From a virus (taxonomy: Duplodnaviria > Heunggongvirae > Uroviricota > Caudoviricetes), in IMG/VR virus record IMGVR_UViG_3300028584_001240: DNA of 64,000 bases; one strand, 5' to 3'. Under the pieces are notes generated by a model. It saw nothing but the letters and a program-made list of their open reading frames with translations, was not told where the DNA came from and searched no databases. A program made the position numbers and the translations under genes. Positions 16,772 to 56,918 of this stretch are shown piece by piece. How positions within the stretch are numbered: position 1 is the stretch's first letter; each line of letters starts with the position of its first letter.

Positions 16772-18052
<1,281 letters not shown>

Positions 18053-18090: not shown

Positions 18091-18855
18091 TCAATAGCGT
18101 TCGATAGCCAAAACTGGATAGTAACTCATAATCTCTTCGTTACTTAATGCATTTACTTGAGTATGCGTTAAATTATATAGACGAATAATTGTACCTAAAA
18201 TTTGTGTCTGATGGAGGTCATTAAATTGAGTGGCAAAAGTATGCATCTGCATTTTAACTAAACTATCCTGTTCACTTTTCTTCTGAAACCAAAAATCCAT
18301 ACCAAATGACATGAAGTGAAATTCATCATTAAGATAAAATTGATTATTCTCAAATATAAATTTAGCTATTTTATAAACCTTAAAAGTCTCAAAAGGTGTT
18401 GTAACTTCGGCATGAATAGTTTTATCCATCATGAGCGTTTTCCATGAACCAAATTTCAATATTCTTTTTGCAAAAGGTAAAACATTTATGTTTGAGATGA
18501 TTTTTAGTTGCTCGCTGTATTCACTTGCAGCCTTCATAAATAATGAAAAAGAATCTGTGCTTTGTTCACTGCAGTGTTTAATAAATTTATTATAAAGTGG
18601 CAAATATTTTTTGTTATCAATATCTAAGGTAATGTTATTTACTACATAATCACCTTTTTTAACATTATTATTGATAGTAAATCGAAAAATAGGCTTAGCT
18701 TTACTCGTATTGACATCTAAGCAACAAATTGTCCTACCACCAGTATACTGACCCAACCCAGTGCGGGTATGGAAAATAACAGAGCCTTTCATATTTTTTT
18801 CAAAGAAAGGTCTTAACTCTGAGATCATTGCTTGACATAATTCATTATCGTTCAT
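18091..18855 (-). CDS. Tail-motif paralogue family member (sub-cluster A, 1 of 3)
   Basis: 254 aa. Ends ..IMSYYPVLAIERY (Ile replaces the Met). Shares KFIFENNQFYLNDEF with the next two genes. Confidence 0.8.
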   Translation of the reverse strand: MNDNELCQAMISELRPFFEKNMKGSVIFHTRTGLGQYTGGRTICCLDVNTSKAKPIFRFTINNNVKKGDYVVNNITLDIDNKKYLPLYNKFIKHCSEQSTDSFSLFMKAASEYSEQLKIISNINVLPFAKRILKFGSWKTLMMDKTIHAEVTTPFETFKVYKIAKFIFENNQFYLNDEFHFMSFGMDFWFQKKSEQDSLVKMQMHTFATQFNDLHQTQILGTIIRLYNLTHTQVNALSNEEIMSYYPVLAIERY

Positions 18856-18873
18856 TTTTTGTGTTTCCTATCA

Positions 18874-19632
18874 TTAATAACGTTCCATTGACAATACTGG
18901 GTAATAAGACTGGAACTGTTTATCAGTCCAAAGACCAAACTCAGTAAAAGGCACATCATACAGTTCATTAATTTTTGAAGTAATAATTTCATAGTGATCT
19001 TCATAAAATTTATGAGCAAATTCTTTAACTTCAACCTTCATGACATCTACGTCTTCTGTTTTTTGAGCAAACGTATAGTGTTGACCTAGTGAAGTAAAAC
19101 TAAACTTATCATGTAAATAAAATTTATTATTTTCAAAAATAAATTTAGGTGTCTTATGAATGTTGATAACTTCAAAAGGAGTTGTCATAATGGCATGGAC
19201 AGCAAGATCCACTCTAATATAGTCACCATCTGCAATCAACTTTCTTTCCTCAAATGGCAATACATCAATAGCAGTTATTAATTTTAAATGATCAGTCTGT
19301 TTAAGTGTTTCATTCATAAACAAATTAAATGAATTAGAACTGTATTGGCTACACACAGCTATGAATTTATTCAATATGTTTAAATGTTTTTCATCGTGGA
19401 CTTTTATTTCGATAGATTTAAACTTTTGATCATAGATCCTTCTGTCTTTCATAATAATAAAAGATAATAAAAGTTGTCCGGTAGAGGACTGCATATGTAA
19501 AATATCCAAAGAAATACCATTAGGCTTAGTATTATTTAATGAAGCCTTAAACATAACAGGATAATTAAGATGTCGAGCCGCAAACAAGCTTAAAACTGAT
19601 TTCATACTCTCAACCAGTTGTTCTGTTGTCAT
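18874..19632 (-). CDS. Tail-motif paralogue family member (sub-cluster A, 2 of 3)
   Basis: 252 aa. Ends ..FQSYYPVLSMERY. Contains PKFIFENNKFYLHDKF. Confidence 0.8.
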   Translation of the reverse strand: MTTEQLVESMKSVLSLFAARHLNYPVMFKASLNNTKPNGISLDILHMQSSTGQLLLSFIIMKDRRIYDQKFKSIEIKVHDEKHLNILNKFIAVCSQYSSNSFNLFMNETLKQTDHLKLITAIDVLPFEERKLIADGDYIRVDLAVHAIMTTPFEVINIHKTPKFIFENNKFYLHDKFSFTSLGQHYTFAQKTEDVDVMKVEVKEFAHKFYEDHYEIITSKINELYDVPFTEFGLWTDKQFQSYYPVLSMERY

Positions 19633-20385
19633 TTAACAAACCTCCATCGCTAATACAGGGTAATAAGACATCAATAATTCTGGCGACCAATTAGAAACTT
19701 CATCAACAGGTGTATTATAGAGTTCACTCAATGCAGTAGTTATATAGAGAAAACATTTATTATAGAATAAATCGGCAAACTTTGAAACGTAATCATTAAT
19801 ATATTTTTCATTATTTTCTGTTCTTTTCATGAACTTAAAATTACCAACTTCCGAAGAAAATACAAATTCAGGATTAATATAGAATTTATTTTTTTCAAAG
19901 ATAAATCTAGGTCTTTGTTCTATTTCAATAGTTTCAAAGGCTGTTTCAAGGTTTGCATAAATTTGTGGATCGATAACACCATGCAATTTTGATGAATACT
20001 GAATAGTGCTGGAATCTTGTAGTATATTGACAGCTTTGATAAATTTCAAATGATTGCTTTGTCTAATCATAGCGTCCACAAATAATGAAAATGAATTAAA
20101 CCCATCAACACAATATTCCTTTACAAACAAATTATAGATGCCTAAATATTTTTGGTCACCAATCACTATATTAATTGAATGTCTTTTAGCCTCATTTGTC
20201 GATTCAAGAATAAAACTGAAAATAATGCTTCCTGATGCAGTGAGGACACGAACATCAGGAAAAAGATTATGACTGCCAACATTACCATTAGTCCGTTTCT
20301 GGAAAAAGACAGGTTCGAGCACATTATCTTTAAAAAATGGCTTTATTTTGGCTATAATTGAATCACATAAATCATTTATATTCAT
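19633..20385 (-). CDS. Tail-motif paralogue family member (sub-cluster A, 3 of 3)
   Basis: 250 aa. Ends ..LMSYYPVLAMEVC. Contains PRFIFEKNKFYINPEF. Confidence 0.8.
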   Translation of the reverse strand: MNINDLCDSIIAKIKPFFKDNVLEPVFFQKRTNGNVGSHNLFPDVRVLTASGSIIFSFILESTNEAKRHSINIVIGDQKYLGIYNLFVKEYCVDGFNSFSLFVDAMIRQSNHLKFIKAVNILQDSSTIQYSSKLHGVIDPQIYANLETAFETIEIEQRPRFIFEKNKFYINPEFVFSSEVGNFKFMKRTENNEKYINDYVSKFADLFYNKCFLYITTALSELYNTPVDEVSNWSPELLMSYYPVLAMEVC

Positions 20386-21119
20386 ATTTTGTGCATCTCT
20401 AATAGTTGAACATATCGAACAATATCTTCATCTAATACTTCTTTTGGATCAAGCGTTATTTTTAAATTCTGCCGAATCCTATTAATAATAGATGATCTTG
20501 ATAAATTATAAAGACCTTTCTCTAAATCCTCATAATAAGATGGATGGTTATCCAATAATTGTGGGTGAGAACTGATGATTTTGTCAGAGAAATGAACAGA
20601 GCAATTTAATCGAAGGTCAAGATATAACTCTTTATTGTAAATAGTAAATACGCAATCATGTCGAATAGTTGTTAAGCCTAATACAGACGTGAACTTTGCC
20701 ACATTAGTTCCTGACAATTTATTAAAATCATTAACTCGGTTCACCCGATCAGATGTAAAAAGGTTAAAGATATTGTCTTCTGATTCGAGTTTGGTCATTT
20801 TGAATAATGATAATTGTTCATGTATGTTTTCAAACATTTTAATAATACGAGCATAGTGAGAATCAACTCGTTTAGCTTTCTTAACCATTTCACGTAAGTA
20901 AAGCTCACCTTCACCATCATAATGGTAAACGTTTAAGATAGGCAAGATGCCTTGTCTATCATTGATATAAATAATAAGTAAGTGTTGTTTCTTGTTGCCA
21001 GTATAAATACTCACTGTAAAAACTGGATTCACAGCCGGTACTTCTTCGACAACAACATCTACACTGAAATGTTCTTTAAAGAATTTAGTAAATACTGGAA
21101 TGATTAACTTTTTCAACAT
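20382..21119 (-). CDS. Tail-motif paralogue family member
   Basis: 245 aa. Ends ..IVRYVQLLEMHKI. Confidence 0.8.
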   Translation of the reverse strand: MLKKLIIPVFTKFFKEHFSVDVVVEEVPAVNPVFTVSIYTGNKKQHLLIIYINDRQGILPILNVYHYDGEGELYLREMVKKAKRVDSHYARIIKMFENIHEQLSLFKMTKLESEDNIFNLFTSDRVNRVNDFNKLSGTNVAKFTSVLGLTTIRHDCVFTIYNKELYLDLRLNCSVHFSDKIISSHPQLLDNHPSYYEDLEKGLYNLSRSSIINRIRQNLKITLDPKEVLDEDIVRYVQLLEMHKI

Positions 21120-21142
21120 ATCTGTAACTCCATCATTAAATT

Positions 21143-21952
21143 TTAAATTTTTGACATATCAATAACATCAATATAACTATCAAACAGTTCTTTACTAATA
21201 GTTTTAAGATCAATGTCCATATCCAAAAATTTTTTTCCAATACGATCTTTAAAGCTGTCATAAAAATAAGTGTAAAACATTCCCACTGATAATACCTCAG
21301 TTATACTGCTATTGGGGGAATGGACTAAAATAGGCGTTTCACCATTGTTATAAAATAAGAACGGACTTTGATCAAGAAACAATACCTTTGTCTGGAATGT
21401 AGCTGTAAACTCGCCATCGTCAAAGGATTGAGGAATACCACCTTTCAAATCAATTTTCTTAGTTTTAATAATCTTAGCGACAACTGGATTATAGGTAACA
21501 TTTTGAATGGCTACGTTAAACTTCTTATTAACAACAGAAGTATCCATATGGGAAAGCATAGAACTTGGTTTAAATTCTACATCACCCGTTTTGATAAATA
21601 AACCTACATCCAAACCTGCCTGAACATAGCTGTCATGAATCGCCTTCATGTAATTAAAATTAGTATTAAAGATTTTATCAAGGTAACGAAGCATACGAGC
21701 CGTCTTTTCTTCATCATCTTGTGTATTAAACGAAAAATGAAGTTCATAAGACTTAGAGTGACTGTTATTTTCCTTGGCAGTTTCTTCGATATAAAGAATA
21801 TCACCATTTTTATTAGGGATGCTCAACACGGAGAAAAATTTACGATCAAAAAATTTCGATTCACTGACTGATTTATCTTTATAGACAAAGCCTTCCGCAA
21901 ACAACTTGGCGGAATAATTTGAAGCAAATTGTTCTATAAATAGATTGTCCAT
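21143..21952 (-). CDS. Tail-motif paralogue family member
   Basis: 269 aa. Ends ..LFDSYIDVIDMSKI. Confidence 0.8.
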   Translation of the reverse strand: MDNLFIEQFASNYSAKLFAEGFVYKDKSVSESKFFDRKFFSVLSIPNKNGDILYIEETAKENNSHSKSYELHFSFNTQDDEEKTARMLRYLDKIFNTNFNYMKAIHDSYVQAGLDVGLFIKTGDVEFKPSSMLSHMDTSVVNKKFNVAIQNVTYNPVVAKIIKTKKIDLKGGIPQSFDDGEFTATFQTKVLFLDQSPFLFYNNGETPILVHSPNSSITEVLSVGMFYTYFYDSFKDRIGKKFLDMDIDLKTISKELFDSYIDVIDMSKI

Positions 21953-22005
21953 AGGATCTCCAATGAAAGATGACCCATTATATCATAAAAACATGTAAAA
22001 ATAAA

Positions 22006-22749
22006 TCAAATTTTAATCATTTTATAGACATTGATTGCTTTTTTAATAAATTCTTCCGATTCATGCATTAAAGAAATCTCTGTCTCTTTAAATATTTCAT
22101 TGTTAATTCTGTTCACAATGATTTTAAAGAATAACGATTCAAGTTCATGTTCTGCATAATCAACACCACAATAAGAGTATACATCATCATTATTATTAAA
22201 AATAAAATAATCATTATCAAAAGAATAGTAAGTTTTAGTGCTATAAAATACTTCACCATCGCTTGTAACATTAATGACATAATTATTTAATCGAAAGATT
22301 TTCTGACCACCCACTGTCTTTTTCATACTAGGTAAAACTTGGAAGAGCTTGTTATTAAACCGGGCATTGTATAAATTATCAGAAGCTGATTTCGTAAAAT
22401 CATCAATAGCGTCAACCACTTCACAGATCCCAAGATGTTCACAAATTTCTTTTTGAATAGCGTCTAGAATTTCATGTTTATGCGAGTTGAATGGAAAAAA
22501 AGATAGCTCTCTGTTTAAAATAACGGTTTTATTTTTTTCATTAATTTTCAATTGATCACAGCGATGAATGTCAACCAACAAACGTAAAGGCCGTTCATTA
22601 AAGAATGTAAATGTTAAAACATAATCGTCAGAAATCATTTTTAGCACAGAAATACTGGGAGAATGAGTAACCTTATGTACAGAATAGCCACCCAAACAAA
22701 AATCAGTGTGGTAACGCTCTAAAAATTTATTAATAATTACTTCTAACAT
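22006..22749 (-). CDS. Tail-motif paralogue family member
   Basis: 247 aa. Ends ..FIKKAINVYKMIKI. Confidence 0.8.
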   Translation of the reverse strand: MLEVIINKFLERYHTDFCLGGYSVHKVTHSPSISVLKMISDDYVLTFTFFNERPLRLLVDIHRCDQLKINEKNKTVILNRELSFFPFNSHKHEILDAIQKEICEHLGICEVVDAIDDFTKSASDNLYNARFNNKLFQVLPSMKKTVGGQKIFRLNNYVINVTSDGEVFYSTKTYYSFDNDYFIFNNNDDVYSYCGVDYAEHELESLFFKIIVNRINNEIFKETEISLMHESEEFIKKAINVYKMIKI

Positions 22750-22758
22750 GTAATATCC

Positions 22759-23526
22759 TTAAATAGTCAGCATTTCTAATAATTGTATTTGTTCTTGATA
22801 TTTGTTATCAAAGTCAATGTCAAAATCAATATTTTTAAAACTTCTGTTGATATTTTTACGAATGGCACGTCTTCTTTTAACTGAAATATAATTTAAAAGC
22901 TGTTCTTTGTTCATATAGTGTTCATCAACTGAATAATGTTCATCAACATTATTAAATTTGATAGCAATAACGTCCCTATCAGAAAAGATGATGTCAATAT
23001 TATAGTTAACAATGATGTTCATATCAGTATCAAAACCTAAATGTTTACCAATAACGGTATTCATTTTAACTCGTCTATTTATTTTTTTATAAAAATCTTT
23101 ATATCCAATTTCGTAAATCAATTTATTAGTATTAAAGAAATCATGACAAGAATCCGAAATGGCATTGAACCGTTTAAATGATTGAATGGAGTCTAGTTGT
23201 TCATCATCAGTTTTAATAAAATCAAATATCTCAAAAACTCTTTTATATTCAATAGTAATAAAAGGTGCAGCCTTCAAAAAATCACGATAAATAGGCTGCT
23301 CTGGTGTTTTTAATGTAGCTAATTGAATTTTTATAGTGCTAGTGTGTGGGATAATTTCAAAAATATAGCAAGTCTCATCATTAAGATGAAAAGAGACATT
23401 AGACGAACCACTCGTATTGTAGCCATATTTCATTTCACTATCTGGCTTATTTTGGGAAATAATAGAGCCATACTTTTCAATAAACAAAGCAGTCAATCGA
23501 ACGAGTTCAGCATGTGTATTGCTCAT
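22759..23526 (-). CDS. Tail-motif paralogue family member
   Basis: Ends ..YQEQIQLLEMLTI. Start moved from TTG 23538 to ATG 23526 (GAGGTG upstream), 1 nt after the upstream stop. Confidence 0.8.
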   Translation of the reverse strand: MSNTHAELVRLTALFIEKYGSIISQNKPDSEMKYGYNTSGSSNVSFHLNDETCYIFEIIPHTSTIKIQLATLKTPEQPIYRDFLKAAPFITIEYKRVFEIFDFIKTDDEQLDSIQSFKRFNAISDSCHDFFNTNKLIYEIGYKDFYKKINRRVKMNTVIGKHLGFDTDMNIIVNYNIDIIFSDRDVIAIKFNNVDEHYSVDEHYMNKEQLLNYISVKRRRAIRKNINRSFKNIDFDIDFDNKYQEQIQLLEMLTI

Positions 23527-23527
23527 A

Positions 23528-24142
23528 TTACACCTCAATCATATCACAAAGAGACACATGAGAACGAATCGTTTCATCAGGCAATTCAAAAAAGAACTTC
23601 TTAGTCATCCCAACATTAGTTTTTTTGTTAACAATATAATGAAGAGAACCCATTGTTTCGACATAAAACAAATTAAGAAGTTCTTCCATAGTAACTTTTT
23701 TATGACTTTCGTTAACCTCACTAGGATGGCGGTAAGTGAGCCAAATATCACCCGTATCCAAATCAAACCAGAGATCTTTTTTATTCATTAGGTGGACCGG
23801 CCAGCAAAGGCGAAGAAAGTTACCAGAATAGATGTTTTTTATCCCCTCTTCTCGGGCTTCAAATTCTGTGTCGAAGCGATAATAGATAATCGAAGTTTTA
23901 GCGACTTTACCACTACTGGACTTACGACGATACGCTGTGCTGTATGTAATTCGTTCAAAATTATTGGATTGAGATTTCATGTAAGTGAATGTTGCTTCAA
24001 AACCATTCTCCATAACACGTCTCATAAAGCTTTCCACTGAAAAGCCAACATCCTGAAAAGCTCCAAGGTCAACACTCTTTTGAAATGCAGACTGAATAAA
24101 GGTCTTTACAGTAGTGAAATCAAATGAATTTAAATCTCTCAT
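23528..24142 (-). CDS. Tail-motif paralogue family member
   Basis: 204 aa. Ends ..IRSHVSLCDMIEV. GGAG upstream. First gene after the promoter at 24172-24200. Confidence 0.8.
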   Translation of the reverse strand: MRDLNSFDFTTVKTFIQSAFQKSVDLGAFQDVGFSVESFMRRVMENGFEATFTYMKSQSNNFERITYSTAYRRKSSSGKVAKTSIIYYRFDTEFEAREEGIKNIYSGNFLRLCWPVHLMNKKDLWFDLDTGDIWLTYRHPSEVNESHKKVTMEELLNLFYVETMGSLHYIVNKKTNVGMTKKFFFELPDETIRSHVSLCDMIEV

Positions 24143-26876: not shown

Positions 26877-27317
26877 ATGAACACGCAGGATCAATCAATA
26901 TTAACTACAATTTATAGAATATTTATAGGACTCACAATCTGTGGGCCAATCATGGCATTATTCATTTCACTGCCCTTTGGACTACCAGTGGTGTTAACAA
27001 TCGCTCTAATAGCCAACTTAATAATGTCTATGAAATATTACAACGAACTGGTTCGCTCATCTTTTGATAGAGAGATTAGAAAATTACTTCATTTTTTTAC
27101 GACATCAATTACTATTTTGTTTCTAACATCCATACCTGCTTTAATAACTTCATACACTGTTGTAAATGACATGACTGCGACGATGGATATGATTGCTGTG
27201 GTTATTAAATTTATAGGATCTATCGTTGCATGGGGATATTACTTAGTTGTTTTGATAAAGGAATATCATCAATTTGAAAAAATGAAAAATAAAAAAAATA
27301 ATATATTTATAGCTTGA
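26877..27317 (+). CDS. 4-TM membrane protein, tandem paralogue 1 of 3
   Basis: 146 aa. Four hydrophobic segments. Conserved (T/N)IY near the N-terminus, a KYY..(I/H)(R/K)K(L/I)L loop, and W(G/S/A)YY in the last helix. AAGGA SD. Confidence 0.8.
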   Translation: MNTQDQSILTTIYRIFIGLTICGPIMALFISLPFGLPVVLTIALIANLIMSMKYYNELVRSSFDREIRKLLHFFTTSITILFLTSIPALITSYTVVNDMTATMDMIAVVIKFIGSIVAWGYYLVVLIKEYHQFEKMKNKKNNIFIA

Positions 27318-27334
27318 AAACAACAATAATATTT

Positions 27335-27359
27335 AAAAGGCACTTAGGTGTCTTTTTTT
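27335..27359 (+). terminator. Rho-independent terminator
   Basis: aaAAGGCACttagGTGTCTTttttt (one G-U pair). Confidence 0.75.
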
Positions 27360-27370
27360 AGTTCATTCGA

Positions 27371-27398
27371 TTGTAAAAGAACAACTACATATTATAAT
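27371..27398 (+). promoter_or_regulatory. Putative sigma70 promoter of membrane-protein gene 2
   Basis: TTGTAA, 16 nt, then TATAAT. Confidence 0.5.
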
Positions 27399-27428
27399 AA
27401 TATAAACAACAATCAAAGATGTGTCCTC

Positions 27429-27875
27429 ATGGATGACAACAACCGATATTCAACATTGAATAATATTTATAAAGCGTTAATTTTTATGACGTTTGCAGTG
27501 CCTACACTTTGTTTTTACATTGCGTTTCAATCGTATATACTTGCCATTCTTTTACTACTTTTATTCATTATTGTTCCACATGCCTTAATTTGGACAAAAT
27601 ATTATAAGCTTACTGACCATGACACTTTTCAATTGCATATTAAAAAAATATTGATGGCTTTTTGGATATCCGGTGGGATACTTTTAGTTTCTTTGTTGCC
27701 AATGTTAGTTTTTGTTGGAGCCGATGGTGGTCAACCCACTGGCGGCGAATATCTAATGATGTTCTTAGCAGCAATTGGATGTTTCATAGGGCCAGCGTTT
27801 TCTTGGTCTTATTATGGCTACAAATTGATGAAAAATTATAGTTTACTTGATAAACAAATAAGAGGTGAGATATGA
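27429..27875 (+). CDS. 4-TM membrane protein, tandem paralogue 2 of 3
   Basis: The track's GTG 27348 lies inside the upstream terminator and before the promoter. ATG 27429 (MDDNNRYSTLNNIYKALIF..) aligns with the paralogue N-termini. Confidence 0.75.
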   Translation: MDDNNRYSTLNNIYKALIFMTFAVPTLCFYIAFQSYILAILLLLLFIIVPHALIWTKYYKLTDHDTFQLHIKKILMAFWISGGILLVSLLPMLVFVGADGGQPTGGEYLMMFLAAIGCFIGPAFSWSYYGYKLMKNYSLLDKQIRGEI

Positions 27876-28300
27876 ATAGTTTTAACGAATACGAGTGTTT
27901 AAAGAACATTTATTCAAGAATGATCATGCTCACAGCTATATCACCAATAGCTGTCTTATTTTTTGGCCCATTTTTGTTTTTATATATATTGATACCTAAT
28001 CTTTATATTTATGTTAAATATTATAAAAGACATGGCAATACAAAATTTGAAGGGCATATCAGAAAAATACTTAAAACATGTTTAATTTCGTTAAGTGTTC
28101 TATTTATATTTTTGTTACCACTTATATCAATGGCCTTCATAGACTTTACAAAAATATATCAAGGAACAGCTTATATGATTTTAATGGTAGCAATGATTTG
28201 TGTTGGTGTTGGTCTTTTGATTTCGTGGGCTTATTATTTTCATAACTTAATGAAGCTATCAAAAACTATAGATGAAAATGACTTTAACAAACTTATTTAA
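27872..28300 (+). CDS. 4-TM membrane protein, tandem paralogue 3 of 3
   Basis: 142 aa. ATGA overlap with paralogue 2. GAGGTG SD. Contains NIYSRMIM.., KYYKRHG.. and WAYYFHNLMK. Confidence 0.8.
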   Translation: MNSFNEYECLKNIYSRMIMLTAISPIAVLFFGPFLFLYILIPNLYIYVKYYKRHGNTKFEGHIRKILKTCLISLSVLFIFLLPLISMAFIDFTKIYQGTAYMILMVAMICVGVGLLISWAYYFHNLMKLSKTIDENDFNKLI

Positions 28301-28799: not shown

Positions 28800-29573
28800 T
28801 CAAATCAAAGACATCTCAGCTAAAGAAATATATTGTGGAAGATTCTTTTTATCTTGTAAAAACGTATCATTATCCATTTTCAGTAATTTAATTAAGACAA
28901 CACGAATACGTCTGAACGCATATCGTTTCAAGTGTCTAAACAATTGTGCTTCATTGACAACTTTATAATTTTTTCTATTACGACCGACTGAACTTAATGA
29001 TGTTAGGGTGCTCACTCGAAGTTGTTTGATATCATCCACTGGTTTAGAGATTTCAACTCGTACAACATAGCCATAGTTAACTAAAAAATCAATGTTAATT
29101 AATAGTTTTGGGGTTTCAGTAAAATCAAAAGACACACTGAAAAATATTTTGCTCCGCATAGCGACATCAGCCGCCCGGTATAAAGGTTTTTTTACATCGT
29201 GAAAATTTAAAGGTGTGATATCAACAGGAAGACTCATCTCATCAATATTAGGAAACGTTTTCAAACTTTTTTCATACGAATCATATGAGATCAATTTGTG
29301 TTCATCAAAACATTGAGCAACAGATGTCATCATGCCTACGATGGTAACAAATGACAGTTCGAAATAATTGCAAATATGTTCCATAATTTCTCTATTACAT
29401 CGTATATTTAAACTAGAACGATTAGCATTACAAATAAAACCAGTAGATTTAAAACTATTATACCTTGGAAATATATCGACTAATTGATTATCATGCTCAA
29501 ATGGAATGACAGATGACAAATGTTGTTGAAACTTTCGGATTTCATCCGCTTCCAGTGAAGTAATTTTTTGCAT
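28800..29573 (-). CDS. Tail-motif paralogue family member
   Basis: 257 aa. Ends ..NLPQYISLAEMSLI. Confidence 0.8.
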   Translation of the reverse strand: MQKITSLEADEIRKFQQHLSSVIPFEHDNQLVDIFPRYNSFKSTGFICNANRSSLNIRCNREIMEHICNYFELSFVTIVGMMTSVAQCFDEHKLISYDSYEKSLKTFPNIDEMSLPVDITPLNFHDVKKPLYRAADVAMRSKIFFSVSFDFTETPKLLINIDFLVNYGYVVRVEISKPVDDIKQLRVSTLTSLSSVGRNRKNYKVVNEAQLFRHLKRYAFRRIRVVLIKLLKMDNDTFLQDKKNLPQYISLAEMSLI

Positions 29574-30274
29574 TAAATAGTATCCATAGCAATCAGTGTC
29601 ATATATCGTCCAATGTCGTCAAATTCGGCTGATTTAATATCTTGTCGGCTGAACAATTTAATCTTCTTTGTCGTCAACAAACAAAGAACACGTTGTCGAA
29701 TAGCTTTTTTAATGATGTCATCAATTGATTGCATGTTATAATCAGGTGTAACACTCAGTAAGAAACGTTCTTTACGAGCCGTAGGTAAATAAATATCCAG
29801 AATCGGTTCAAAATGGTCACCTTTAACAATGAATCGCATTACTAATCGTACACTTGGATAAATATTATACCCTTTTCTAATGGTGTAAAAGGTTTCTTTA
29901 TTGGCAATGACATTCCTATCTTTCAGAGGAACCATCATTTCATAATTAAAACTATCGGCATGAAAGTTTTCAATATCAAAGGTAGGTTGATGACTGACAG
30001 TGGTTGTCAATTGAGTGTTTTCCATGCGTGACATATACAGATCAACAATTTCTCTCACAATCTTGAAATCCATTGAAAATAATCCATAAATCTCTTTAAG
30101 CATATTAAGATTTAAGGCAGTAACATTCACTTCAAAAACATCGGCTTTAATTTGACTTAGAGTCATGTATTGAGTGTAATTATTTTCCTCAATAAAATAT
30201 TTAAAGATACCTTCTTGATGGGCTTTTTTGTATTCATTGATTTCATTGATAACAATCTGTTTAAAGTTTTTCAT
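29573..30274 (-). CDS. Tail-motif paralogue family member
   Basis: 233 aa. Ends ..DIGRYMTLIAMDTI. 1-nt overlap with the downstream gene. Confidence 0.8.
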   Translation of the reverse strand: MKNFKQIVINEINEYKKAHQEGIFKYFIEENNYTQYMTLSQIKADVFEVNVTALNLNMLKEIYGLFSMDFKIVREIVDLYMSRMENTQLTTTVSHQPTFDIENFHADSFNYEMMVPLKDRNVIANKETFYTIRKGYNIYPSVRLVMRFIVKGDHFEPILDIYLPTARKERFLLSVTPDYNMQSIDDIIKKAIRQRVLCLLTTKKIKLFSRQDIKSAEFDDIGRYMTLIAMDTI

Positions 30275-30275
30275 T

Positions 30276-31013
30276 TTAAATTTTTTCCATGCTAAGAACG
30301 GTTAAGTATTGTTTAAGCGTTTCTTCATCAAATTCAACAGCGTCAAAACATTCTTCTGGGTAAGCGTCAATCAAGAAGGCTTTAAACTCACTCAGCACAC
30401 CTTCTTTGACTACTTTTTGGGCGACTTCATATAATTCATCGTTACCAAGAATAACAGAGAAATAGCCCTCTTCTGAGAGTGGGAATGTGATTTTAGCCCT
30501 TGGTTGAATGACACCATCTTGAAAATGCAAAAACAACTGAATATAAATACGGGCGTCTTTTAGATTTAATCCACCACTGAATTCCTTAGAGTAGTAATTA
30601 CCCTCTGCAGCGACTCCTGCAAAGGAATCATACTTACTGGTAAACTCTTCACGAAAGACAGCTTTTATATAAGAATCGTCATAACGGTCATGCATTTTGA
30701 AATCACGCATGTAGCTGACGTATGCTTCGCAAATAGAATCTACTTTGTCAAAATCAAAACCAAACGATTTATAAATTTGACGTTCAATCAATGAAAACTT
30801 GGTTTTCAAAACATAGATATCTGAATAGTCTTTAAATAGATTTTTTTCAACATTGATAGGTGTGAAATAATCAAGTTCCGACCATTTTACTGAATACTTT
30901 GTTAACTTTAATGATGTCTCATGAGCACCATTAAATAAAAGTTTATTCGTATCAAATGAATAGGCATTCAAGGTATTAACAAAATCTTTAAGCCCTTCGT
31001 TCATTGTACTCAT
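30276..31013 (-). CDS. Tail-motif paralogue family member
   Basis: 245 aa. Ends ..TLKQYLTVLSMEKI. Confidence 0.8.
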   Translation of the reverse strand: MSTMNEGLKDFVNTLNAYSFDTNKLLFNGAHETSLKLTKYSVKWSELDYFTPINVEKNLFKDYSDIYVLKTKFSLIERQIYKSFGFDFDKVDSICEAYVSYMRDFKMHDRYDDSYIKAVFREEFTSKYDSFAGVAAEGNYYSKEFSGGLNLKDARIYIQLFLHFQDGVIQPRAKITFPLSEEGYFSVILGNDELYEVAQKVVKEGVLSEFKAFLIDAYPEECFDAVEFDEETLKQYLTVLSMEKI

Positions 31014-37255: not shown

Positions 37256-38095
37256 TTATACACTAATCATATCATTAAGCTTTAAAACATCTCGATAATC
37301 AAGATTAAAATCAATACCATATTCATCATTTAATCTTGGCTTCAAGTTTTTACAAGCCAAATCATAGAGATAACGATATACATAATCTTGCAATTCACTT
37401 TCAGCAATCACCAATGTTTCTTCTGGCACTAATTCATCTAATACTGCCAAGTCACTTTTATAATTTTCTTTTGGCTGACTGGTAATAAAAAGCTCTTGTG
37501 AACTTTTGGTATATACCATATTGACAACGACTTTATTTAAATCTTGTGTAAATAAAAGCTTGTCAGTTTCTAAACTTTCATAAAAAGCAAAAATACAGAT
37601 TGAATATTTTAACACAAATTGAAAGAAACTTCTATGTATATCTACAAAATCAGTACCTGAAAAATAAAATTCATTATCATGCTGCATAATACAGATTTCA
37701 CGTTGTTCAAGATTCGGGCCATCAGTGTAACTGAAAAAATAAAGCATTTCTTTTGGGTGTAAAATAAAACTAATATTATGTTTATCTTTAAAAATAGCAA
37801 AAAGCTTATCAACCAAGACATCAGAAACATGAAAAAAGATAGGGTATGCTAAATAACACATTACTCCATCAATTGTAGCCGTTTCATTAACGTAGAGTTT
37901 ACGAGCAATAGTTTTCAAAACGCATTGATTATTTTTATAAAAATAAATATCTTTGAGATCTTTCAACGTACATGACACCCCATTACTGGAAAATGCATGC
38001 ATCGTTTTTGTCATGTCATCATAATAGAAACTGATTTCAACGCCGTAAATACGAGACGTTTTAATAAACCAGTGTTGTTCAACATTCGGATGCAT
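37256..38095 (-). CDS. Tail-motif paralogue family member
   Basis: 279 aa. Ends ..DYRDVLKLNDMISV. Sits between the tRNA genes and the tRNA-like element. Confidence 0.8.
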   Translation of the reverse strand: MHPNVEQHWFIKTSRIYGVEISFYYDDMTKTMHAFSSNGVSCTLKDLKDIYFYKNNQCVLKTIARKLYVNETATIDGVMCYLAYPIFFHVSDVLVDKLFAIFKDKHNISFILHPKEMLYFFSYTDGPNLEQREICIMQHDNEFYFSGTDFVDIHRSFFQFVLKYSICIFAFYESLETDKLLFTQDLNKVVVNMVYTKSSQELFITSQPKENYKSDLAVLDELVPEETLVIAESELQDYVYRYLYDLACKNLKPRLNDEYGIDFNLDYRDVLKLNDMISV

Positions 38096-38149
38096 AACAA
38101 GACCTCAAAAAAATAAACCTTATAGAATTATAAGATTTATGTAATAATG

Positions 38150-38224
38150 TTGAAGAGGAAGGATTTGAACCTCCGACATACCCGCCCAAAATGCAGGCTG
38201 CTCTACCCACTGAGCTACCCTTCA
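38150..38224 (-). tRNA. tRNA with non-canonical anticodon arm; anticodon most simply UUU (Lys); CCA not encoded
   Basis: Manual fold of the minus strand: acceptor TGAAGGG/CTCTTCA (U1-A72, one G-U); D arm GCTC-AGTGGGTA-GAGC; anticodon arm GCCTGC-ATTTTGG-GCGGGT (6 bp, or 5 bp with a 9-nt loop); variable ATGTC; T arm GGAGG-TTCAAAT-CCTTC; discriminator A. Confidence 0.7.
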
Positions 38225-38272
38225 AACTCTTTATAAAACAATAGAGCAACTAGGTTACTCTATTTTTTAAAT

Positions 38273-38349
38273 TGGTCGGAGTGGCAGGATTTGAACCTGC
38301 GGCATCTTGCTCCCAAAGCAAGCGGTCTACCGGGCTGACCTACACTCCG
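38273..38349 (-). tRNA. tRNA-Pro (anticodon UGG), CCA encoded
   Basis: Manual cloverleaf: CGGAGTG-TA-GGTC-AGCCCGGTA-GACC-G-CTTGC-TTTGGGA-GCAAG-ATGCC-GCAGG-TTCAAAT-CCTGC-CACTCCG-A-CCA. All stems are Watson-Crick. C1-G72 and G37 are typical of tRNA-Pro. Confidence 0.9.
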
Positions 38350-38362: not shown

Positions 38363-38391
38363 ATAATACGATATTCATACTGCATTGTCAA
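38363..38391 (-). promoter_or_regulatory. Strong sigma70-type promoter of the tRNA transcription unit
   Basis: Minus strand: TTGACA, 17 nt, then TATTAT, ending 13 nt before the tRNA-Pro 5' end. Confidence 0.65.
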
Positions 38392-46148: not shown

Positions 46149-47327
46149 ATGAACGACAAATTAAATGAAGAAAAGAGATACATGAAAGTCGCCAAAGAAA
46201 TGAACTTATTCATGTTGGCTGAAAGTGCAGGTGTTGTTTACTGGAAACCAGAAGGGCTTAAATTGTATGAGAATTTAAAATCTTTTATTCGTAAACACCA
46301 TGAAGACGCTGGTTATCTTGAAGTCAAGAGTCCATCCATTGTGGTGCCTAGCTTATTTGAGCAGTCTGGTCATATGGATAAATACAAAGATAACATGTTC
46401 TTTCTCAATTCATCAGAAGCCAGTAACTACGCTCTCCGTCCTATGAGCTGTCCCAACCATATCCTAATCTATCAATCAGAAAAAAGAAGCTACCGTGAAC
46501 TCCCATTACCAATATTTGAGTTTGGTGAGGTGTTTCGTAATGAAGCGTCTGGTGCATTACAAGTGTTATTCAGACAAAGACAATTCTGTCAGGATGATAG
46601 TCATGTGTTTGTGAATGAAGAAAATCTAATCAGTTCGGTCAATCAATACATACAGATGAGCCAAAAAGCGTATGAAGAACTCGGATTCAAAAAGATTAAA
46701 TACGCCATTGCGTTACGTCCAGAAAAAAGATTTGGTGATGACATCTTATGGGATAAAGCCGAAGAAGCCTTGCGAGAAGCCTGCAGAATGAATAATCTTG
46801 ATTTCGTAGAAAACGAAAATGACGGGGCTTTCTATGGCCCGAAACTAGAACTCCAAGTAGAAGACAAACTCGGCAGATCATGGCAATTAGGTGTGATACA
46901 GCTTGATTATGTTCTTCCAGAACGTTTTGGACTTGAATACATTGATGCCGATAACAAACCTAAGCGTCCTATTATTCTCCACCATGCCGTATTAGGTTCA
47001 CTTGAACGCATGATAGGGATCTTGTTGGAGTCCTTTGGTAAAGACATACCTGACTTCTTACACCCTATGAAATCAGTGGTTATTCCAGTATCCGAAAAAT
47101 CTATGGAGTATGCAAAGGTCGTATTCTCTCATATGGATAAGAAATCATCTAAACTGGATCAAAGTGCTGATTCATTAGGTAAGAAGATTCGATACTGGAA
47201 AGAACGTGGTGTTCCTGAGATCATTGTAGTCGGTGAAGCTGAACAAAGTAAATATGACAATGAAGGTGTGATTAGTTTTGTCGTCAATCTTGGTGCTGTC
47301 AAAGAAGTCAGAGAAATTAAGCCATAA
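46149..47327 (+). CDS. thrS: Threonyl-tRNA synthetase, catalytic plus anticodon-binding domains only (no N-terminal TGS/editing domains)
   Basis: 392 aa. Aligns by eye with E. coli ThrRS from about residue 242 to the end: RPMSCPNH, YRELPLPIFEFGEVFRNEASGAL..FRQRQFCQDDSHVF, GAFYGPKLE, ILHHAVLGSLERMIGILLE. The Zn ligands (Cys, His, His) are conserved. Confidence 0.93.
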   Translation: MNDKLNEEKRYMKVAKEMNLFMLAESAGVVYWKPEGLKLYENLKSFIRKHHEDAGYLEVKSPSIVVPSLFEQSGHMDKYKDNMFFLNSSEASNYALRPMSCPNHILIYQSEKRSYRELPLPIFEFGEVFRNEASGALQVLFRQRQFCQDDSHVFVNEENLISSVNQYIQMSQKAYEELGFKKIKYAIALRPEKRFGDDILWDKAEEALREACRMNNLDFVENENDGAFYGPKLELQVEDKLGRSWQLGVIQLDYVLPERFGLEYIDADNKPKRPIILHHAVLGSLERMIGILLESFGKDIPDFLHPMKSVVIPVSEKSMEYAKVVFSHMDKKSSKLDQSADSLGKKIRYWKERGVPEIIVVGEAEQSKYDNEGVISFVVNLGAVKEVREIKP

Positions 47328-48000: not shown

Positions 48001-48669
48001 TCAATAGTAATACATCTTAACAATTTGCTTTTCTGATTTAGTAAGCTTCTCTGTCGTGTCCTTTTTGTCAATAAGTTGTGAATAGTACCTAATAAAAAAT
48101 TCATTGTCAATCATTTTAACGGCATTCTCAAAACTATATTCATTGTTTTTTACAATAATATAAAGTTCTGGAAATTCTTTATACTTTTTAAATTTTAAAA
48201 CGATTTTTTGATAGATATTTCCATGTAACGAATGGTAAACATACACTGGATAGATTTCAATATGATCAAGGTTAGCATACACTGGGTTTTTCTTTTTATT
48301 TATTTCATCGCCTTTATTGATAAGACGAAGATGATTTGTAATCACCTTAAAAAATTTTTTAGCATGATAATTATCAACATTCTCAAAATAGACCTTTCTA
48401 GGCGATTCTTTTTTTGATAATAGATTAGGTTTAATGTCGAAAGAGCACTCATGCTCTGAGTCATGTTGGAAATAAGTCAGATTACCAATAGCATAAAATC
48501 TATCATAACCTGATCTTATTTTCGGTGTGCCATCTGGATTTACCGCTTCCTGAACAATAGTGTAACCAGAAGATATTTGATATCTATAATTAATATTACT
48601 GACGGAATGCTTTAAATAGTAATTAAAGGACGCCATATTGTCAGGTAAATCGAATTTTCCTATATCCAT
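48001..48669 (-). CDS. Tail-motif paralogue family member (sub-cluster B, 3 of 4)
   Basis: 222 aa. Ends ..LTKSEKQIVKMYYY. Confidence 0.8.
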   Translation of the reverse strand: MDIGKFDLPDNMASFNYYLKHSVSNINYRYQISSGYTIVQEAVNPDGTPKIRSGYDRFYAIGNLTYFQHDSEHECSFDIKPNLLSKKESPRKVYFENVDNYHAKKFFKVITNHLRLINKGDEINKKKNPVYANLDHIEIYPVYVYHSLHGNIYQKIVLKFKKYKEFPELYIIVKNNEYSFENAVKMIDNEFFIRYYSQLIDKKDTTEKLTKSEKQIVKMYYY

Positions 48670-48673
48670 AATA

Positions 48674-49375
48674 TTAATAGTAAACCATTTTAATCAACTC
48701 TTGTTCTTTTTTGTTAAAGAATTTGCCACGCTCAATTTTTTCACGATCAACAATACCATTATAATAACGTGTTTGAAATGTTTTTTCCATATCATCAATA
48801 GCGGCTAAAAATTTGTTGTCATCATTTAAAATAACAATTTTATGTTCTGGGTAGCCATTGCTTGCTTTAAATTTAAGGAGAGCACATTTACTAACGATTT
48901 GACTAATACGATCATATCTGTAGAAGCACCTAACCATAAGCGATTTTGAATCAAAATTAATAAGTTCACGTTTTTTATGCAAAAGAGTAGCTTCATTTAA
49001 AAGTTTAAGGTGCCGTTTTAATCTCACCCAAAATTCATCAACATGAAACCTATAAACATAATCAAATTTAATAGGTTTACCTGTATCATCTTTTGAAGTG
49101 AGCAGTGTAAAAGAGACTTCGAAATCAGAATCCCAATTACATTCACGACCATTAACAATACTGGCAACCTGATAAAATTTATCATAATACCGAATATGAC
49201 CACTGCCCCAACCAGAAGTTTCATAGACTCTAATTCTATGACCATCAGTCGTTAAGGGATAACGATGAACATAAATGGAATCATCACCATACTCATATTC
49301 GGCATTTGAAAATTTCGAAGAAAAGTATTTTGCAAGTTCAGTCGCTTTATTAATTTCAGTGGAAGGCATAAACAT
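48674..49375 (-). CDS. Tail-motif paralogue family member (sub-cluster B, 2 of 4)
   Basis: Ends ..FNKKEQELIKMVYY. Start moved from TTG 49414 to ATG 49375 (MFMPSTEINK..). HRYPLTTDGHRI matches CRYPLDKEGNRI of the next gene. Confidence 0.75.
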   Translation of the reverse strand: MFMPSTEINKATELAKYFSSKFSNAEYEYGDDSIYVHRYPLTTDGHRIRVYETSGWGSGHIRYYDKFYQVASIVNGRECNWDSDFEVSFTLLTSKDDTGKPIKFDYVYRFHVDEFWVRLKRHLKLLNEATLLHKKRELINFDSKSLMVRCFYRYDRISQIVSKCALLKFKASNGYPEHKIVILNDDNKFLAAIDDMEKTFQTRYYNGIVDREKIERGKFFNKKEQELIKMVYY

Positions 49376-49410
49376 AATAAGAGAACCTTTTTTTAATTTA
49401 AGTAAGTGTA

Positions 49411-50142
49411 TCAATAATAGGTCATTTTTACAAGTTCTTTTAAACGTTCATCCCATTTTGAAATATCCAATAGAGCATAAACATCATCAAAACTCATATT
49501 AGGATAAGCTTCTTTTATTTTGTCTTTGTAATACAGTTTAAAAAACTCAATGTCCATATTTTTTAACGTATTCTGTGTAGTTAACATATTATCCGTTACA
49601 TAGTAGACTGGAAGGATTTCACTAGATGATTTGTTACTTTTCATAAACTGAACAGCTAGAGTTCTTGAAATTTTTTTATTAAGCTGATCATATTTGAAAT
49701 TAAATTTAATTGAAAAGTCGTTGCAGACAATAAATTGATAATCGTCAGAAATATTTTTTTGATTGAGAAGTGTTAAGTGTTGATTAGTATGTTGCATAAA
49801 CAAATCAATCATTGGTGAAGATAAATCACCAAAACGTTCAGAATAAATATCATCGTATTTAGAAGATAATTCAAAAAAAAGTGAACTTGGTGTGTCACCT
49901 TTACCAACATGAGCAATAGTTTCCGACTTAGCGGCTGTGCCACCATACATTCCATAAGTAAAAGGAGCTTCTTTAAGTGCTTCAATAATCCGATTACCCT
50001 CTTTATCTAATGGATAACGACAGATTCCAATTGGATTAGTACCATACTCGTAGTGTTCATTTGTAAAGTTGTTTACAAAATAATCAAGGAATCCATACAA
50101 GGGAAACTGTTTCTTTTTTTCTTCATCAATGACTTCATTCAT
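49411..50142 (-). CDS. Tail-motif paralogue family member (sub-cluster B, 1 of 4)
   Basis: 243 aa. Ends ..WDERLKELVKMTYY. Confidence 0.8.
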   Translation of the reverse strand: MNEVIDEEKKKQFPLYGFLDYFVNNFTNEHYEYGTNPIGICRYPLDKEGNRIIEALKEAPFTYGMYGGTAAKSETIAHVGKGDTPSSLFFELSSKYDDIYSERFGDLSSPMIDLFMQHTNQHLTLLNQKNISDDYQFIVCNDFSIKFNFKYDQLNKKISRTLAVQFMKSNKSSSEILPVYYVTDNMLTTQNTLKNMDIEFFKLYYKDKIKEAYPNMSFDDVYALLDISKWDERLKELVKMTYY

Positions 50143-55043: not shown

Positions 55044-56918
55044 TCAGACTGCAATGTATTTTGCAACAAATTCAGCTTCGGTCAAGATTTCAATATCAAC
55101 ACCTTTCGCTTTCAAGGCTTGGGCGTCAGCAAGTTTACTACCAGCACTTTCACCGTAAACAAGAATTTGTGTTGTCTTGCTTGCTTTGCTTTGGATCTTC
55201 GCACCTTTCGATGTGAAGAACGCTTCAATCTCTTTACGTGAGTAGCTAACCATTGTACCAGTTACCACCACGTTCTTACCAGAGAATGGACTATCATTGT
55301 CAACAACTGCTTGTGAAGACAATTCAAGATTGAACAAAGGACGCAAGGTATTAATCAATTCAAGTTTTTCTTGAATACCGGCTGGAATGAGAACGCTATT
55401 CACTGGGCCGTAACCTTTCATCTTAATCAACTTACCTTCTTCGACTTCATGCAGTGCGTCGATATTGAAGACTTTAAGCAACTTTTTAGAGTCGCCTTTA
55501 CCAAGACTCGAAATACCGAAGGCTGCAAGGAAACGCCAGTCTTCAATTTGACTTGATTTACTGGTTTCAAGAGCGGCGACCAAGTTAGGGCTTTCACCTT
55601 TACCAAAACCAGCGGTCAAGAAATCCTGCTCTTTCATTGCGTAAATCTTTTCCAAGGTGTCGAAACCTGCTTCAACCAACTTAGCGACTGTTTTACCACC
55701 AAAACCATCGTTGTTAGCCAATGTTGCAAAGAAGTGCAACAAGGTCTGGCTAATTTGTTCCGAGCAACCTGAATGGTTAGGGCAGAAAAGGAAGTGACTT
55801 TCCCATTCAAGCACAGTGTTACAGCAAGGGCAGTTCGTTGGAACTTCGTATTCAGCTTGGGTAATCACTTTTTCAATTTTAGGGATTACTTCACCACTAC
55901 GAATGATTTCAATGACGGCACCTACACCCATTTTGTTCGTGCGAACGTTGTTCATGTGGTGAGCGGTTACGTTACTAATCGTTGCACCAGACACAAGAAC
56001 AGGAGCCACAGCAAGAACCGGCGTGATAGTGCCAGTGCGACCTACTTGAAGTTTAACATCAAGCACAGTAGTCTGTGCAGTTTCACCACGTTCTTTAAAT
56101 GCACACTGCCATTTATTGTGATGGTTGTTGTAGCCCATGTATTCTTTGATTTCTGGAACAATGGATTCAATCACGAAACCGTCAATCAAGTAAGGAATAG
56201 CAGCACGCAAATCGTTGTTGATTTGTACAAGGTTAGCAAGAATGTCATCAGCCGTGCCAACATAAGCCTGCAACGTGGTGTAAGGCACAAAATGAATCGC
56301 ACCGTCATCCAAAGCCTTCTGAGTTTCAGGGCGTGTATCTTCCTGAGACAATACGCTGCTCATCATGTTACGTGGATGTGGGAACATCGAAGCAAGGTTC
56401 TCTGCGAAATAAGTCTTGTCAATCACCAACTCGCCACGACCTTCTGCATTTTCTTTACGAATAACACCTTTATCGTAGATGTAAGTAATGTCGTTACCAC
56501 GAATGCCATCACCACGAGTAGATAGTTTTTCTGTTTCATGGCAACCCGCAAAACCATCAAGTTTGCAAGTAACTTTATACATGGATTTTACATGAAGATC
56601 CTGAGCTACGTCTTCAACACGTTTAAACCATTTAGCCAAGGCTTCGGAAGTGTAGAATTTTTCGGTTGACAGCATAGGGGAAGAGTGAGTAATAGCGTTT
56701 TCGCCAACTTCTTCCAATTCAATTTCATCAAACCATGTTGATTCAGGGAATTTAGCACGAAAATCTTCAACAACAGCGTCATAATTTTCATCGGCAATTG
56801 GATCAAGACCAAACAATGCAGTCTTTGGCAACGATTTACGGTAGCAATCGTTATAATCTTCAAGCAGCTCAATGAAAGCAGCTTCGGTTGTTGGGTATTT
56901 GATGTCATTGATATTCAT
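55044..56918 (-). CDS. ligA: NAD-dependent DNA ligase
   Basis: 624 aa. Adenylation KxDG (TCKLDGFAG), OB fold, four-Cys zinc finger (CPCCNTVL..CPNHSGC), HhH region and a C-terminal BRCT (GKNVVVTGTM..). GGAG SD. Confidence 0.96.
   Translation of the reverse strand: MNINDIKYPTTEAAFIELLEDYNDCYRKSLPKTALFGLDPIADENYDAVVEDFRAKFPESTWFDEIELEEVGENAITHSSPMLSTEKFYTSEALAKWFKRVEDVAQDLHVKSMYKVTCKLDGFAGCHETEKLSTRGDGIRGNDITYIYDKGVIRKENAEGRGELVIDKTYFAENLASMFPHPRNMMSSVLSQEDTRPETQKALDDGAIHFVPYTTLQAYVGTADDILANLVQINNDLRAAIPYLIDGFVIESIVPEIKEYMGYNNHHNKWQCAFKERGETAQTTVLDVKLQVGRTGTITPVLAVAPVLVSGATISNVTAHHMNNVRTNKMGVGAVIEIIRSGEVIPKIEKVITQAEYEVPTNCPCCNTVLEWESHFLFCPNHSGCSEQISQTLLHFFATLANNDGFGGKTVAKLVEAGFDTLEKIYAMKEQDFLTAGFGKGESPNLVAALETSKSSQIEDWRFLAAFGISSLGKGDSKKLLKVFNIDALHEVEEGKLIKMKGYGPVNSVLIPAGIQEKLELINTLRPLFNLELSSQAVVDNDSPFSGKNVVVTGTMVSYSRKEIEAFFTSKGAKIQSKASKTTQILVYGESAGSKLADAQALKAKGVDIEILTEAEFVAKYIAV

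Follow-up and report, generated by a model that had tools for sequence, protein, structure and literature searches.

Phage-encoded tRNAs neutralise the tRNA-targeting immunity of their hosts, as in the cases of PARIS, retron Ec78 and PrrC, and the escapes documented so far are, to our knowledge, point substitutions in tRNAs of normal shape. The tRNA-Lys(UUU) that phage T5 encodes (PMC11464382; PMC12409363) escapes the AriB nuclease via the substitutions U39A and A41C, single substitutions within the AriB context being sufficient to protect it (PMC12409363). The present study concerns a 75-nt gene for another phage tRNA-Lys(UUU), located at 38150..38224 on the minus strand of a 64,000-nt stretch of viral DNA (IMG/VR record IMGVR_UViG_3300028584_001240; the whole stretch is referred to below as the window). 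Like the T5 tRNA, it is phage-encoded, carries the UUU anticodon, would depart from the host type at the arm positions read by a nuclease and would supply lysine decoding. However, T5 tRNA-Lys has a normal 17-nt anticodon arm with two decisive substitutions and is tied to PARIS defence, whereas the tRNA described here, known from sequence alone, has two extra nucleotides in the arm together with A32, G37 and G38, and lacks A37.

Other described tRNAs share one or another of these features. Phage tRNAs tend to differ from those of their hosts in the anticodon loop, which has been proposed to provide escape from anticodon nucleases, and loop-substituted forms have been suggested to resist VapC, PrrC and colicins (PMC10264068). 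The non-anticodon loop bases of the present tRNA likewise lie outside the cellular pattern, but the earlier examples have arms of normal size and belong to known host–phage pairs, whereas here the length of the arm is altered as well. At the same time, a sixth pair can form atop the anticodon stem in tRNAPyl, mammalian mitochondrial (mt) tRNA-Ser(UCN) and the allo-tRNAs resembling selenocysteine (Sec) tRNA, as it can here (PMC7609411). The natural 6-bp anticodon stems of tRNAPyl and mt-tRNA-Ser(UCN) are compensated by a 3-nt variable loop, a 1-nt connector and a small D loop, and the tRNASec-like molecules use the 8/5 or 9/4 Sec fold (PMC7609411); in contrast, the connector, D loop and variable loop described below are canonical, and the sixth pair is merely a G.U that is broken in one natural variant.

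The gene is tentatively read here as that of a functional phage elongator tRNA-Lys(UUU) with a remodelled anticodon stem-loop, plausibly spared by host enzymes that act on the anticodon arm, a reading to which, taken as a whole, we give slightly less than an even chance. Its distinctive features are the uncompensated enlargement by two nucleotides, G37 following UUU, and a sequence kept fully constant throughout a widely distributed lineage of very large phages.

The tRNA-Lys gene

The element is a genuine tRNA gene in a phage-like genome, and it was delimited by ARAGORN, Rfam, RNAfold and direct reading. ARAGORN called tRNA-Lys(ttt) at 38149-38224(-) and found two tRNAs only in the window, this one and tRNA-Pro(tgg). 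The Rfam tRNA model RF00005, for which the gathering score is 29, gave it 49.9 bits (E=4e-9 for 2.5 kb, E=1e-7 for the entire window), the tRNA-Lys being one of 2 Rfam matches in all over the window. An Rfam match to YrlA spanning both tRNAs reached 22.6 bits where the gathering score is 69, and was regarded as spurious. The coordinates 38150-38224 of the initial annotation proved right, and the sequence that it quoted is the tRNA-sense (minus) strand, which reads UGAAGGG-UA-GCUC-AGUGGGUA-GAGC-A-GCCUGC-AUUUUGG-GCGGGU-AUGUC-GGAGG-UUCAAAU-CCUUC-CUCUUCA-A, then CAU.

The acceptor stem of the tRNA has 7 bp, including U1-A72, the D stem 4 bp and the T stem 5 bp, and direct reading located all of the core positions (U8, A14, G18G19, A21, G46, C48, T54-Psi55-C56 and A58). 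Also canonical are A26, the U8 A9 connector, the D loop (8 nt, with G18G19) and the variable loop (5 nt, AUGUC), the last of which, A44-U45-G46-U47-C48, leaves G46 and C48 positioned for their tertiary pairs. The canonical acceptor, D and T arms described initially were recovered by direct reading, ARAGORN and RNAfold alike, and the anticodon UUU, G37, U1-A72 and lack of an encoded CCA were all found in the sequence as annotated, the discriminator A73 being followed by CAU and not by CCA.

Size and folding of the anticodon arm

The anticodon arm, GCCUGC-AUUUUGG-GCGGGU (38180..38198, minus strand), was read directly, and its alternative folds were scored. It occupies 19 nt between A26 and A44, as had been claimed, and not the 17 nt of a canonical arm with a 5-bp stem and a 7-nt loop. 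On the minus strand, the extra G lies at 38198, the extra U at 38180, A32 at 38192, U33 at 38191, the UUU anticodon at 38190-38188, G37 at 38187 and G38 at 38186.

The programs placed the two extra bases differently. In the minimum free energy (MFE) structure from RNAfold, a cloverleaf, the anticodon stem has 6 bp, the extra bases forming an outer G.U, and the loop has 7 nt. ARAGORN drew a 5-bp stem, CCUGC/GCGGG, and the 7-nt loop AUUUUGG, so that the additional G follows A26 and the additional U lengthens the variable loop to 6 nt; Infernal kept the outer five pairs and put a 2-nt insertion in the loop. The initial annotation had allowed that a tRNA predictor might find a normal arm with another anticodon; ARAGORN did return the 7-nt loop and 5-bp stem, a placement that needs a 2-nt connector, but the anticodon stayed UUU and no other was obtained. 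The energies of the three scored structures were −25.6 kcal/mol with six pairs, −23.7 kcal/mol with the G.U open and −21.5 kcal/mol with a 9-nt loop, so that the last is the least likely form; the closing C-G gives the 7-nt loop in the MFE and centroid structures alike, and a 9-nt loop costs +4.1 kcal/mol. Thus, where a 6-bp stem or a 9-nt loop had been offered as the two possible arrangements, a 7-nt loop on five solid pairs with an optional sixth G.U was retained, and the 9-nt loop, about 4 kcal/mol worse, was given up.

The five solid pairs are G/C-rich and include one U.G pair. The sixth, worth −1.9 kcal/mol, becomes U.U in one relative (L015), and because the gene is otherwise invariant no covariation is available for this pair. 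Since the extra G and U stand between A26/A44 and the five solid pairs, they add one layer to the anticodon helix, for which there is no compensation elsewhere in the tRNA.

In the resulting 7-nt loop, A32-U33-UUU-G37-G38, U33 and the purine at 37 are in the canonical register, but positions 32, 37 and 38 are A, G and G against the canonical C/U, A and A, so that only U33 and the anticodon conform. In the set of tRNAs gathered during this work, which is a biased sample, A37 occurred in 80 of 82 distinct tRNAs with U36 and G37 in one, and the canonical Lys loops were CUUUUAA and UUUUUAA.

As a frameshift or quadruplet tRNA, the molecule would have the 9-nt loop C-A-U-U-U-U-G-G-G and might decode AAAN or CAAA, for instance, or promote shifts where A-rich sequence is slippery. 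The sufA6, sufB2 and sufG frameshift suppressors, engineered quadruplet decoders and a few viral tRNAs (L190, L192, L195 and L007) also have extra nucleotides in the anticodon arm. Infernal indeed puts the extra bases in the loop, and tRNAs with an 8-nt loop containing UUUUGG exist in IMG/VR phages, such as AUUUUGGC beside GUGAAAAC in L190, the former sharing with the present tRNA the A-UUUU-GG motif, U1, A26, A73 and the T loop. However, the extra bases here can pair and leave a 7-nt loop, which the closing C-G favours by the 4.1 kcal/mol given above and in which U33 and the purine 37 keep their canonical register. Moreover, standard open reading frames (ORFs) make up 90% of the window, and no split gene that would need a +1 shift is seen among them. 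The suggestion of non-triplet decoding made initially was not upheld on these grounds, and a role of this kind is considered very unlikely.

Conservation among related phages

Relatives were found with the 279-aa ORF downstream of the tRNA-Lys gene as an anchor, its homologues having 36–99% identity and lying on contigs of up to 773 kb; 15 loci were retrieved from 14 independent runs or assemblies. The tRNA-Pro/tRNA-Lys pair was present in every retrieved locus, and the 75-nt tRNA-Lys was identical across them save for single changes in L012 and L015. The change in L012 turns an A-U pair of the T stem into G-U. The change in L015, G to U at position 38198, affects the outermost base of the arm and breaks the optional G.U, and it is the sole natural variant of the arm. 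Counted over 16 loci, all 75 nt are unchanged in 13; besides L012 and L015, the exceptions are L137 and L202, which differ only 3′ of A73, where L137 encodes CCA.

Region identities were computed from seven diverged aligned sequences, or from six upstream of the inter-tRNA spacer, L137 being without that part. The mean pairwise identity was 0.996 for tRNA-Lys and 0.975 for tRNA-Pro, 0.89 for the inter-tRNA spacer, 0.74 for the downstream terminator, 0.62 for the promoter spacer and 0.53 for the sequence upstream of the promoter, and tRNA-Lys was unchanged even where the flanking protein drops to 36% identity. Invariance of the gene while the flanking protein, promoter spacer and terminator have diverged shows that the tRNA-Lys functions. 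It is under very strong purifying selection, so that the odd features of its arm have been retained on purpose.

The conservation also bears on the idea of a decaying pseudogene or an assembly artefact. A non-canonical arm and an Rfam score of 49.9 bits, against 69.1 for the neighbouring tRNA-Pro, are all that speaks for it. The same sequence was found in at least 14 independent runs, in lineages with 36–87% identity of the flanking protein, and with the promoter and terminator maintained; since neutral sites were substituted many times while the tRNA stayed fixed, including both extra bases and the loop, this idea is excluded, and the probability left to it is close to nil. An assembly error in particular was ruled out by the occurrence of the identical sequence in independent assemblies.

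Amino acid identity

Lysine identity is determined by the anticodon triplet and A73 (PMC9976931), and as UUU and A73 are both present, charging with lysine is the expected outcome. When the whole tRNA was compared with 50,697 phage records by BLASTN, tRNA-Pro came out on top, with tRNA-Arg, tRNA-Asn and tRNA-Lys scoring similarly; the body of the tRNA is therefore generic and gives no indication of isotype, and the body-similarity ranking is dominated by the way in which the loci were collected. An ancestry from tRNA-Pro, to which the top matches seemed to point, was dropped in view of the like scores of the Arg, Asn and Lys tRNAs.

The pair U1-A72 is atypical of tRNA-Lys; in bacteria, it is rather a mark of tRNA-Gln and tRNA-Asn. 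Together with the top matches annotated as tRNA-Pro and the presence of both UUG and UGG in the loop, this could mean a derivative of tRNA-Gln(UUG) or tRNA-Pro(UGG) whose anticodon is off-register in the enlarged loop. But reading UUG or UGG as the anticodon needs the unfavourable 9-nt loop, similarity to the tRNA-Gln body is low in a set that is biased, the body is generic, and a canonical tRNA-Pro(UGG) already adjoins the gene, so a different identity is judged highly improbable.

Proposed decoding and possible escape from anticodon-arm enzymes

The course of events that we favour would begin with co-transcription of tRNA-Lys and tRNA-Pro(UGG) from a strong sigma-70-type promoter. Host enzymes would then process the tRNA-Lys and add its CCA, lysine would be charged via UUU and A73, and the product would read AAA, which this AT-rich genome uses more than any other codon, and also AAG, on the ribosome. 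The anticodon stem-loop has been remodelled and the tRNA core left canonical. The likeliest benefit would be that the molecule is no longer a substrate for enzymes recognising a canonical tRNA-Lys arm, such as PrrC/RloC-type anticodon nucleases, AriB/OLD-type stem-cutting Toprim nucleases and the machinery for N6-threonylcarbamoyladenosine at position 37 (t6A37), and lysine decoding could then persist when the host tRNA-Lys is attacked or depleted.

By analogy with the systems outlined above, evasion of host anticodon-arm nucleases is plausible. In E. coli, the context recognised and cleaved by AriB is U36-AAUC|A, and the corresponding U36-GGGCGG of this tRNA differs at every position 3′ of U36. 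Owing to this GGGCGG, A32 and the extra helix layer, an enzyme that measures or reads the canonical Lys arm would meet a different object.

Several observations weigh against a functional, nuclease-resistant tRNA-Lys. With G37 after U36, t6A37 is impossible, and t6A37 strongly aids the weak UUU–AAA pairing, so that its loss beside UUU would be costly to decoding. The ribosomal geometry of the anticodon could be off, because the compensations seen in other tRNAs with a 6-bp anticodon stem are absent here. A terminator-like hairpin, described below, lies just upstream of the tRNA-Lys. Finally, the 64-kb window contains no gene for lysyl-tRNA synthetase (LysRS), for an RNA ligase or kinase of tRNA repair, or for a protein related to nucleases or defence.

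Codon demand by itself might account for the gene. AAA is the top codon of the window, at 68 per 1000 (AAG, 18), and CCA is the top proline codon, so that tRNA-Lys and tRNA-Pro fit the highest demand of the genome. In an explanation of this kind, the tRNA-Lys would be a plain codon-supply tRNA, and its extra bases and A32, G37 and G38 would be tolerated quirks or co-adaptations to phage or host factors, with no role in evasion. The ARAGORN fold, which keeps the 5-bp stem and 7-nt loop normal and sets the extra bases elsewhere, and the broken outer G.U of L015, which suggests that this pair is not essential, are consistent with it, and huge phages commonly bear many tRNAs unlike those of their hosts (PMC7162821). 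Yet a neutral quirk should drift, and the arm is invariant across lineages with heavily substituted neutral sites; moreover, the joint change of all three non-anticodon loop positions, including the loss of A37, is unusual. Codon supply alone is thus regarded as unlikely.

Invariance of every nucleotide also fits a protein-recognition surface and hence a tRNA-like decoy or regulator, which would bind and sequester LysRS, a modification enzyme or an anticodon nuclease of the host, or else take part in non-ribosomal aminoacyl transfer, the long arm keeping it off the ribosome. An uncompensated longer arm without A37 is expected to weaken decoding (PMC7609411; general knowledge), and it was considered possible in the T5 study that viral tRNAs, when overexpressed, are competitive inhibitors of AriB (PMC12409363). 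However, the acceptor, D and T arms, the T stem contacted by EF-Tu and the tertiary positions are canonical beyond the need of a decoy, and a decoy should resemble the arm of the host target, which this arm does not. A decoy is for these reasons held to be quite unlikely.

As for the tRNA-Lys itself, its consequences would depend on its activity. If it is charged and decodes AAA, a UUU anticodon lacking t6A and a further layer in the anticodon helix would both be acceptable to the ribosome and LysRS, and the molecule could serve as a natural scaffold on which orthogonal or nuclease-resistant tRNAs are built; should it prove inactive in decoding, it would become a candidate tRNA decoy. More speculatively, and unlikely as we consider it at present, a natural tRNA working with an uncompensated extra helix layer and G37 beside UUU might decode AAA even though its anticodon is displaced, perhaps keeping the frame differently at A-rich sites, or might form, with the 8-nt-loop tRNAs of L190 (A-UUUU-GG arms), a new class of nuclease-proof decoders or decoys in large phages.

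The two-tRNA unit and its signals

The sigma-70-type promoter lies at 38363..38391 on the minus strand, with TTGACA at 38391-38386, a 17-nt spacer and TATTAT at 38368-38363. It matches the consensus at 11 of 12 positions, and both hexamers are invariant in six diverged relatives, in which the 17-nt spacer is 62% identical. The tRNA-Pro(UGG) gene that follows (38273..38349, minus strand; ARAGORN, Rfam 69.1 bits) is canonical and encodes its CCA; in the relatives it has a mean identity of 97.5% and shows a compensatory change of G-C to A-U in the T stem.

Between the two tRNAs, the terminator scan and RNAfold identified an 11-bp hairpin followed by GUUUU (38240..38264, minus strand), whose stem is kept in the relatives while its loop varies (CUA, UUA, CAA and UGU). 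It may be an intrinsic terminator within the operon or a processing site, for instance for an RNase, and it could set the ratio of tRNA-Pro to tRNA-Lys. Downstream of tRNA-Lys, RNAfold of the operon placed an intrinsic terminator with an A/U-rich hairpin of about 12 bp and U7 (38107..38141, minus strand), a region 74% identical among the relatives with compensatory changes in the stem. Conservation of the promoter hexamers and of this terminator points to expression as one unit. The 279-aa ORF used as the anchor is situated further downstream (37256..38095, minus strand), has a GAGG ribosome-binding site, and matched no Pfam family and no PHROG.

Genome context and host

The window has 32% G+C and 76 ORFs in the standard code. 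Pfam matches were obtained for only about a dozen of the 76, including an S49 protease, a Band 7 protein and a NUDIX protein, and PHROG matches were obtained for, among others, a portal protein, a head maturation protease and a DNA polymerase. The relatives on contigs of 520–773 kb considered, the genome is best read as belonging to a very large phage such as those reported in PMC7162821, a work in which huge phages were found often to carry many tRNAs unlike host ones.

Genes for tyrosyl-, seryl- and threonyl-tRNA synthetases (TyrRS, SerRS and ThrRS) and for an NAD-dependent DNA ligase are located at 2134-3408 (−), 16772-18043 (−), 46149-47327 (+) and 55044-56918 (−), respectively. TyrRS and SerRS are full-length, and the 392-aa ThrRS, which matches positions 171-535 of the thrS model, is without the N-terminal editing region. 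The synthetases show that the genome invests in translation, and their amino acids (Tyr, Ser and Thr) match neither of the window tRNAs (Pro and Lys).

Additionally, same-strand runs of ORFs of about 245–270 aa with no Pfam or PHROG match occur at 11813-24142, 28800-31013, 48001-50142 and 60913-64000, all on the minus strand. Only some of them are tandem paralogues according to BLASTP, namely the triplets at 18091-20385, 48001-50142 and 60913-64000 and several pairs; a further triplet of paralogues, of shorter ORFs, was found by BLASTP at 26877-28300.

The lineage was not found in INPHARED, nor in IMG/VR by searches with both flanking ORF proteins. The similarity to deposited phages consisted of weak tblastn matches to uncultured phages of 634–642 kb, for the class of which the published host is Bacteroidetes. 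A Bacteroidota host, suggested by these matches, is unsupported given the TTGACA/TATTAT promoter and the frequency of Shine-Dalgarno-like motifs, which precede 43 of the 76 ORFs against 6% of random positions. We can only infer a possible Bacillota-like host, which the sigma-70 promoter and the Shine-Dalgarno usage would fit.

Occurrence of similar tRNAs and tRNA-like elements

A search of IMG/VR for the exact 19-nt arm gave one chance match, in a GC-rich coding region and not in a tRNA. When the arm was searched there as a pattern with a fixed D-stem end, one extra nucleotide before U33, UUUU followed by a purine, and the T loop, three sites were obtained, of which one was a real tRNA, with an 8-nt loop. 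The arm architecture with the UUUUGG loop occurred neither in IMG/VR nor in any of 185,579 species-representative bacterial and archaeal genomes, and from the latter absence it follows that the tRNA was not simply copied from a host. A scan of metagenomes with D-arm and T-arm anchors and a variable gap yielded, among the matches listed, ordinary tRNA-Phe and tRNA-Met with 17-nt arms and was uninformative.

When UUUUGG was searched for in either register, a few phage tRNAs were obtained whose loops have 8 nt. Closest to the present tRNA is the Lys-like AUUUUGGC of L190 (IMG/VR UViG_3300038441_001119, 212 kb), which lies side by side with a second such tRNA, the Phe-like GUGAAAAC named above, at 1111-1278. 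Another, CGUUUUAC, lies within an array of 12 tRNAs (L007:8407-8480); UUUUUGGU is common to four related viral contigs, with L192, L196, L198 and L199 listed; and one more viral 8-nt-loop tRNA is situated at L195:9952-10026. These may be naturally occurring frameshift or quadruplet tRNAs, or else variants that evade nucleases.

With the pattern loosened to any purine at position 37, about 50 loci were obtained in cellular genomes, mostly of Bacteroidota, with the 6-bp stem UCCCGA-UUUUUAA-UCGGGA. As a cellular class of tRNA-Lys with a 6-bp stem these loci were ruled out, as they are partial 3′ copies of adjacent tRNAs. The Bacteroidota copies comprise the 3′ two-thirds of a tRNA gene, with the anticodon arm swapped for the invariant hairpin UCCCGA-UUUUUAA-UCGGGA; in the Ignavibacteria version, the hairpin stem is CUCCGA/UCGGAG. 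Their T arm and 3′ acceptor strand always equal those of the adjoining tRNA (Arg-UCU, Lys-UUU, Val, Ala or Met), the 5′ acceptor strand is missing in most, and ARAGORN mislabels some of them as tRNA-Lys. They occur in Chryseobacterium, Flavobacterium, Chitinophagaceae and Bacteroidales, and in one Ignavibacteria and one Saccharibacteria metagenome-assembled genome (MAG), at loci L141:5490-5880, L142:208-284, L155, L163, L167, L175, L177, L183 and L186. The Chryseobacterium copies are arrayed as tandem units of about 123 nt, every unit having a terminator hairpin of its own, and a truncated 5′ half of tRNA-Arg precedes the first unit. No description of these 3′ hairpin copies in Bacteroidota was found in the literature; they could be remnants of recombination sites or a tRNA-targeting mini-element.

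A further recurring element, ending in ...UAGAGCCGCAAUGGUUUUAGCCGUUGAAUUAUUGGGUUCGAGUCCCAUCUCUCGCACCA, combines a T arm like that of a tRNA with a terminal CCA, and ARAGORN makes no tRNA call on it. It was observed at L005:4047-4090, L006:10665-10708, L153, L159 and L170, that is, in viral contigs as well as in MAGs of Oscillospiraceae, Eubacterium and Faecousia.

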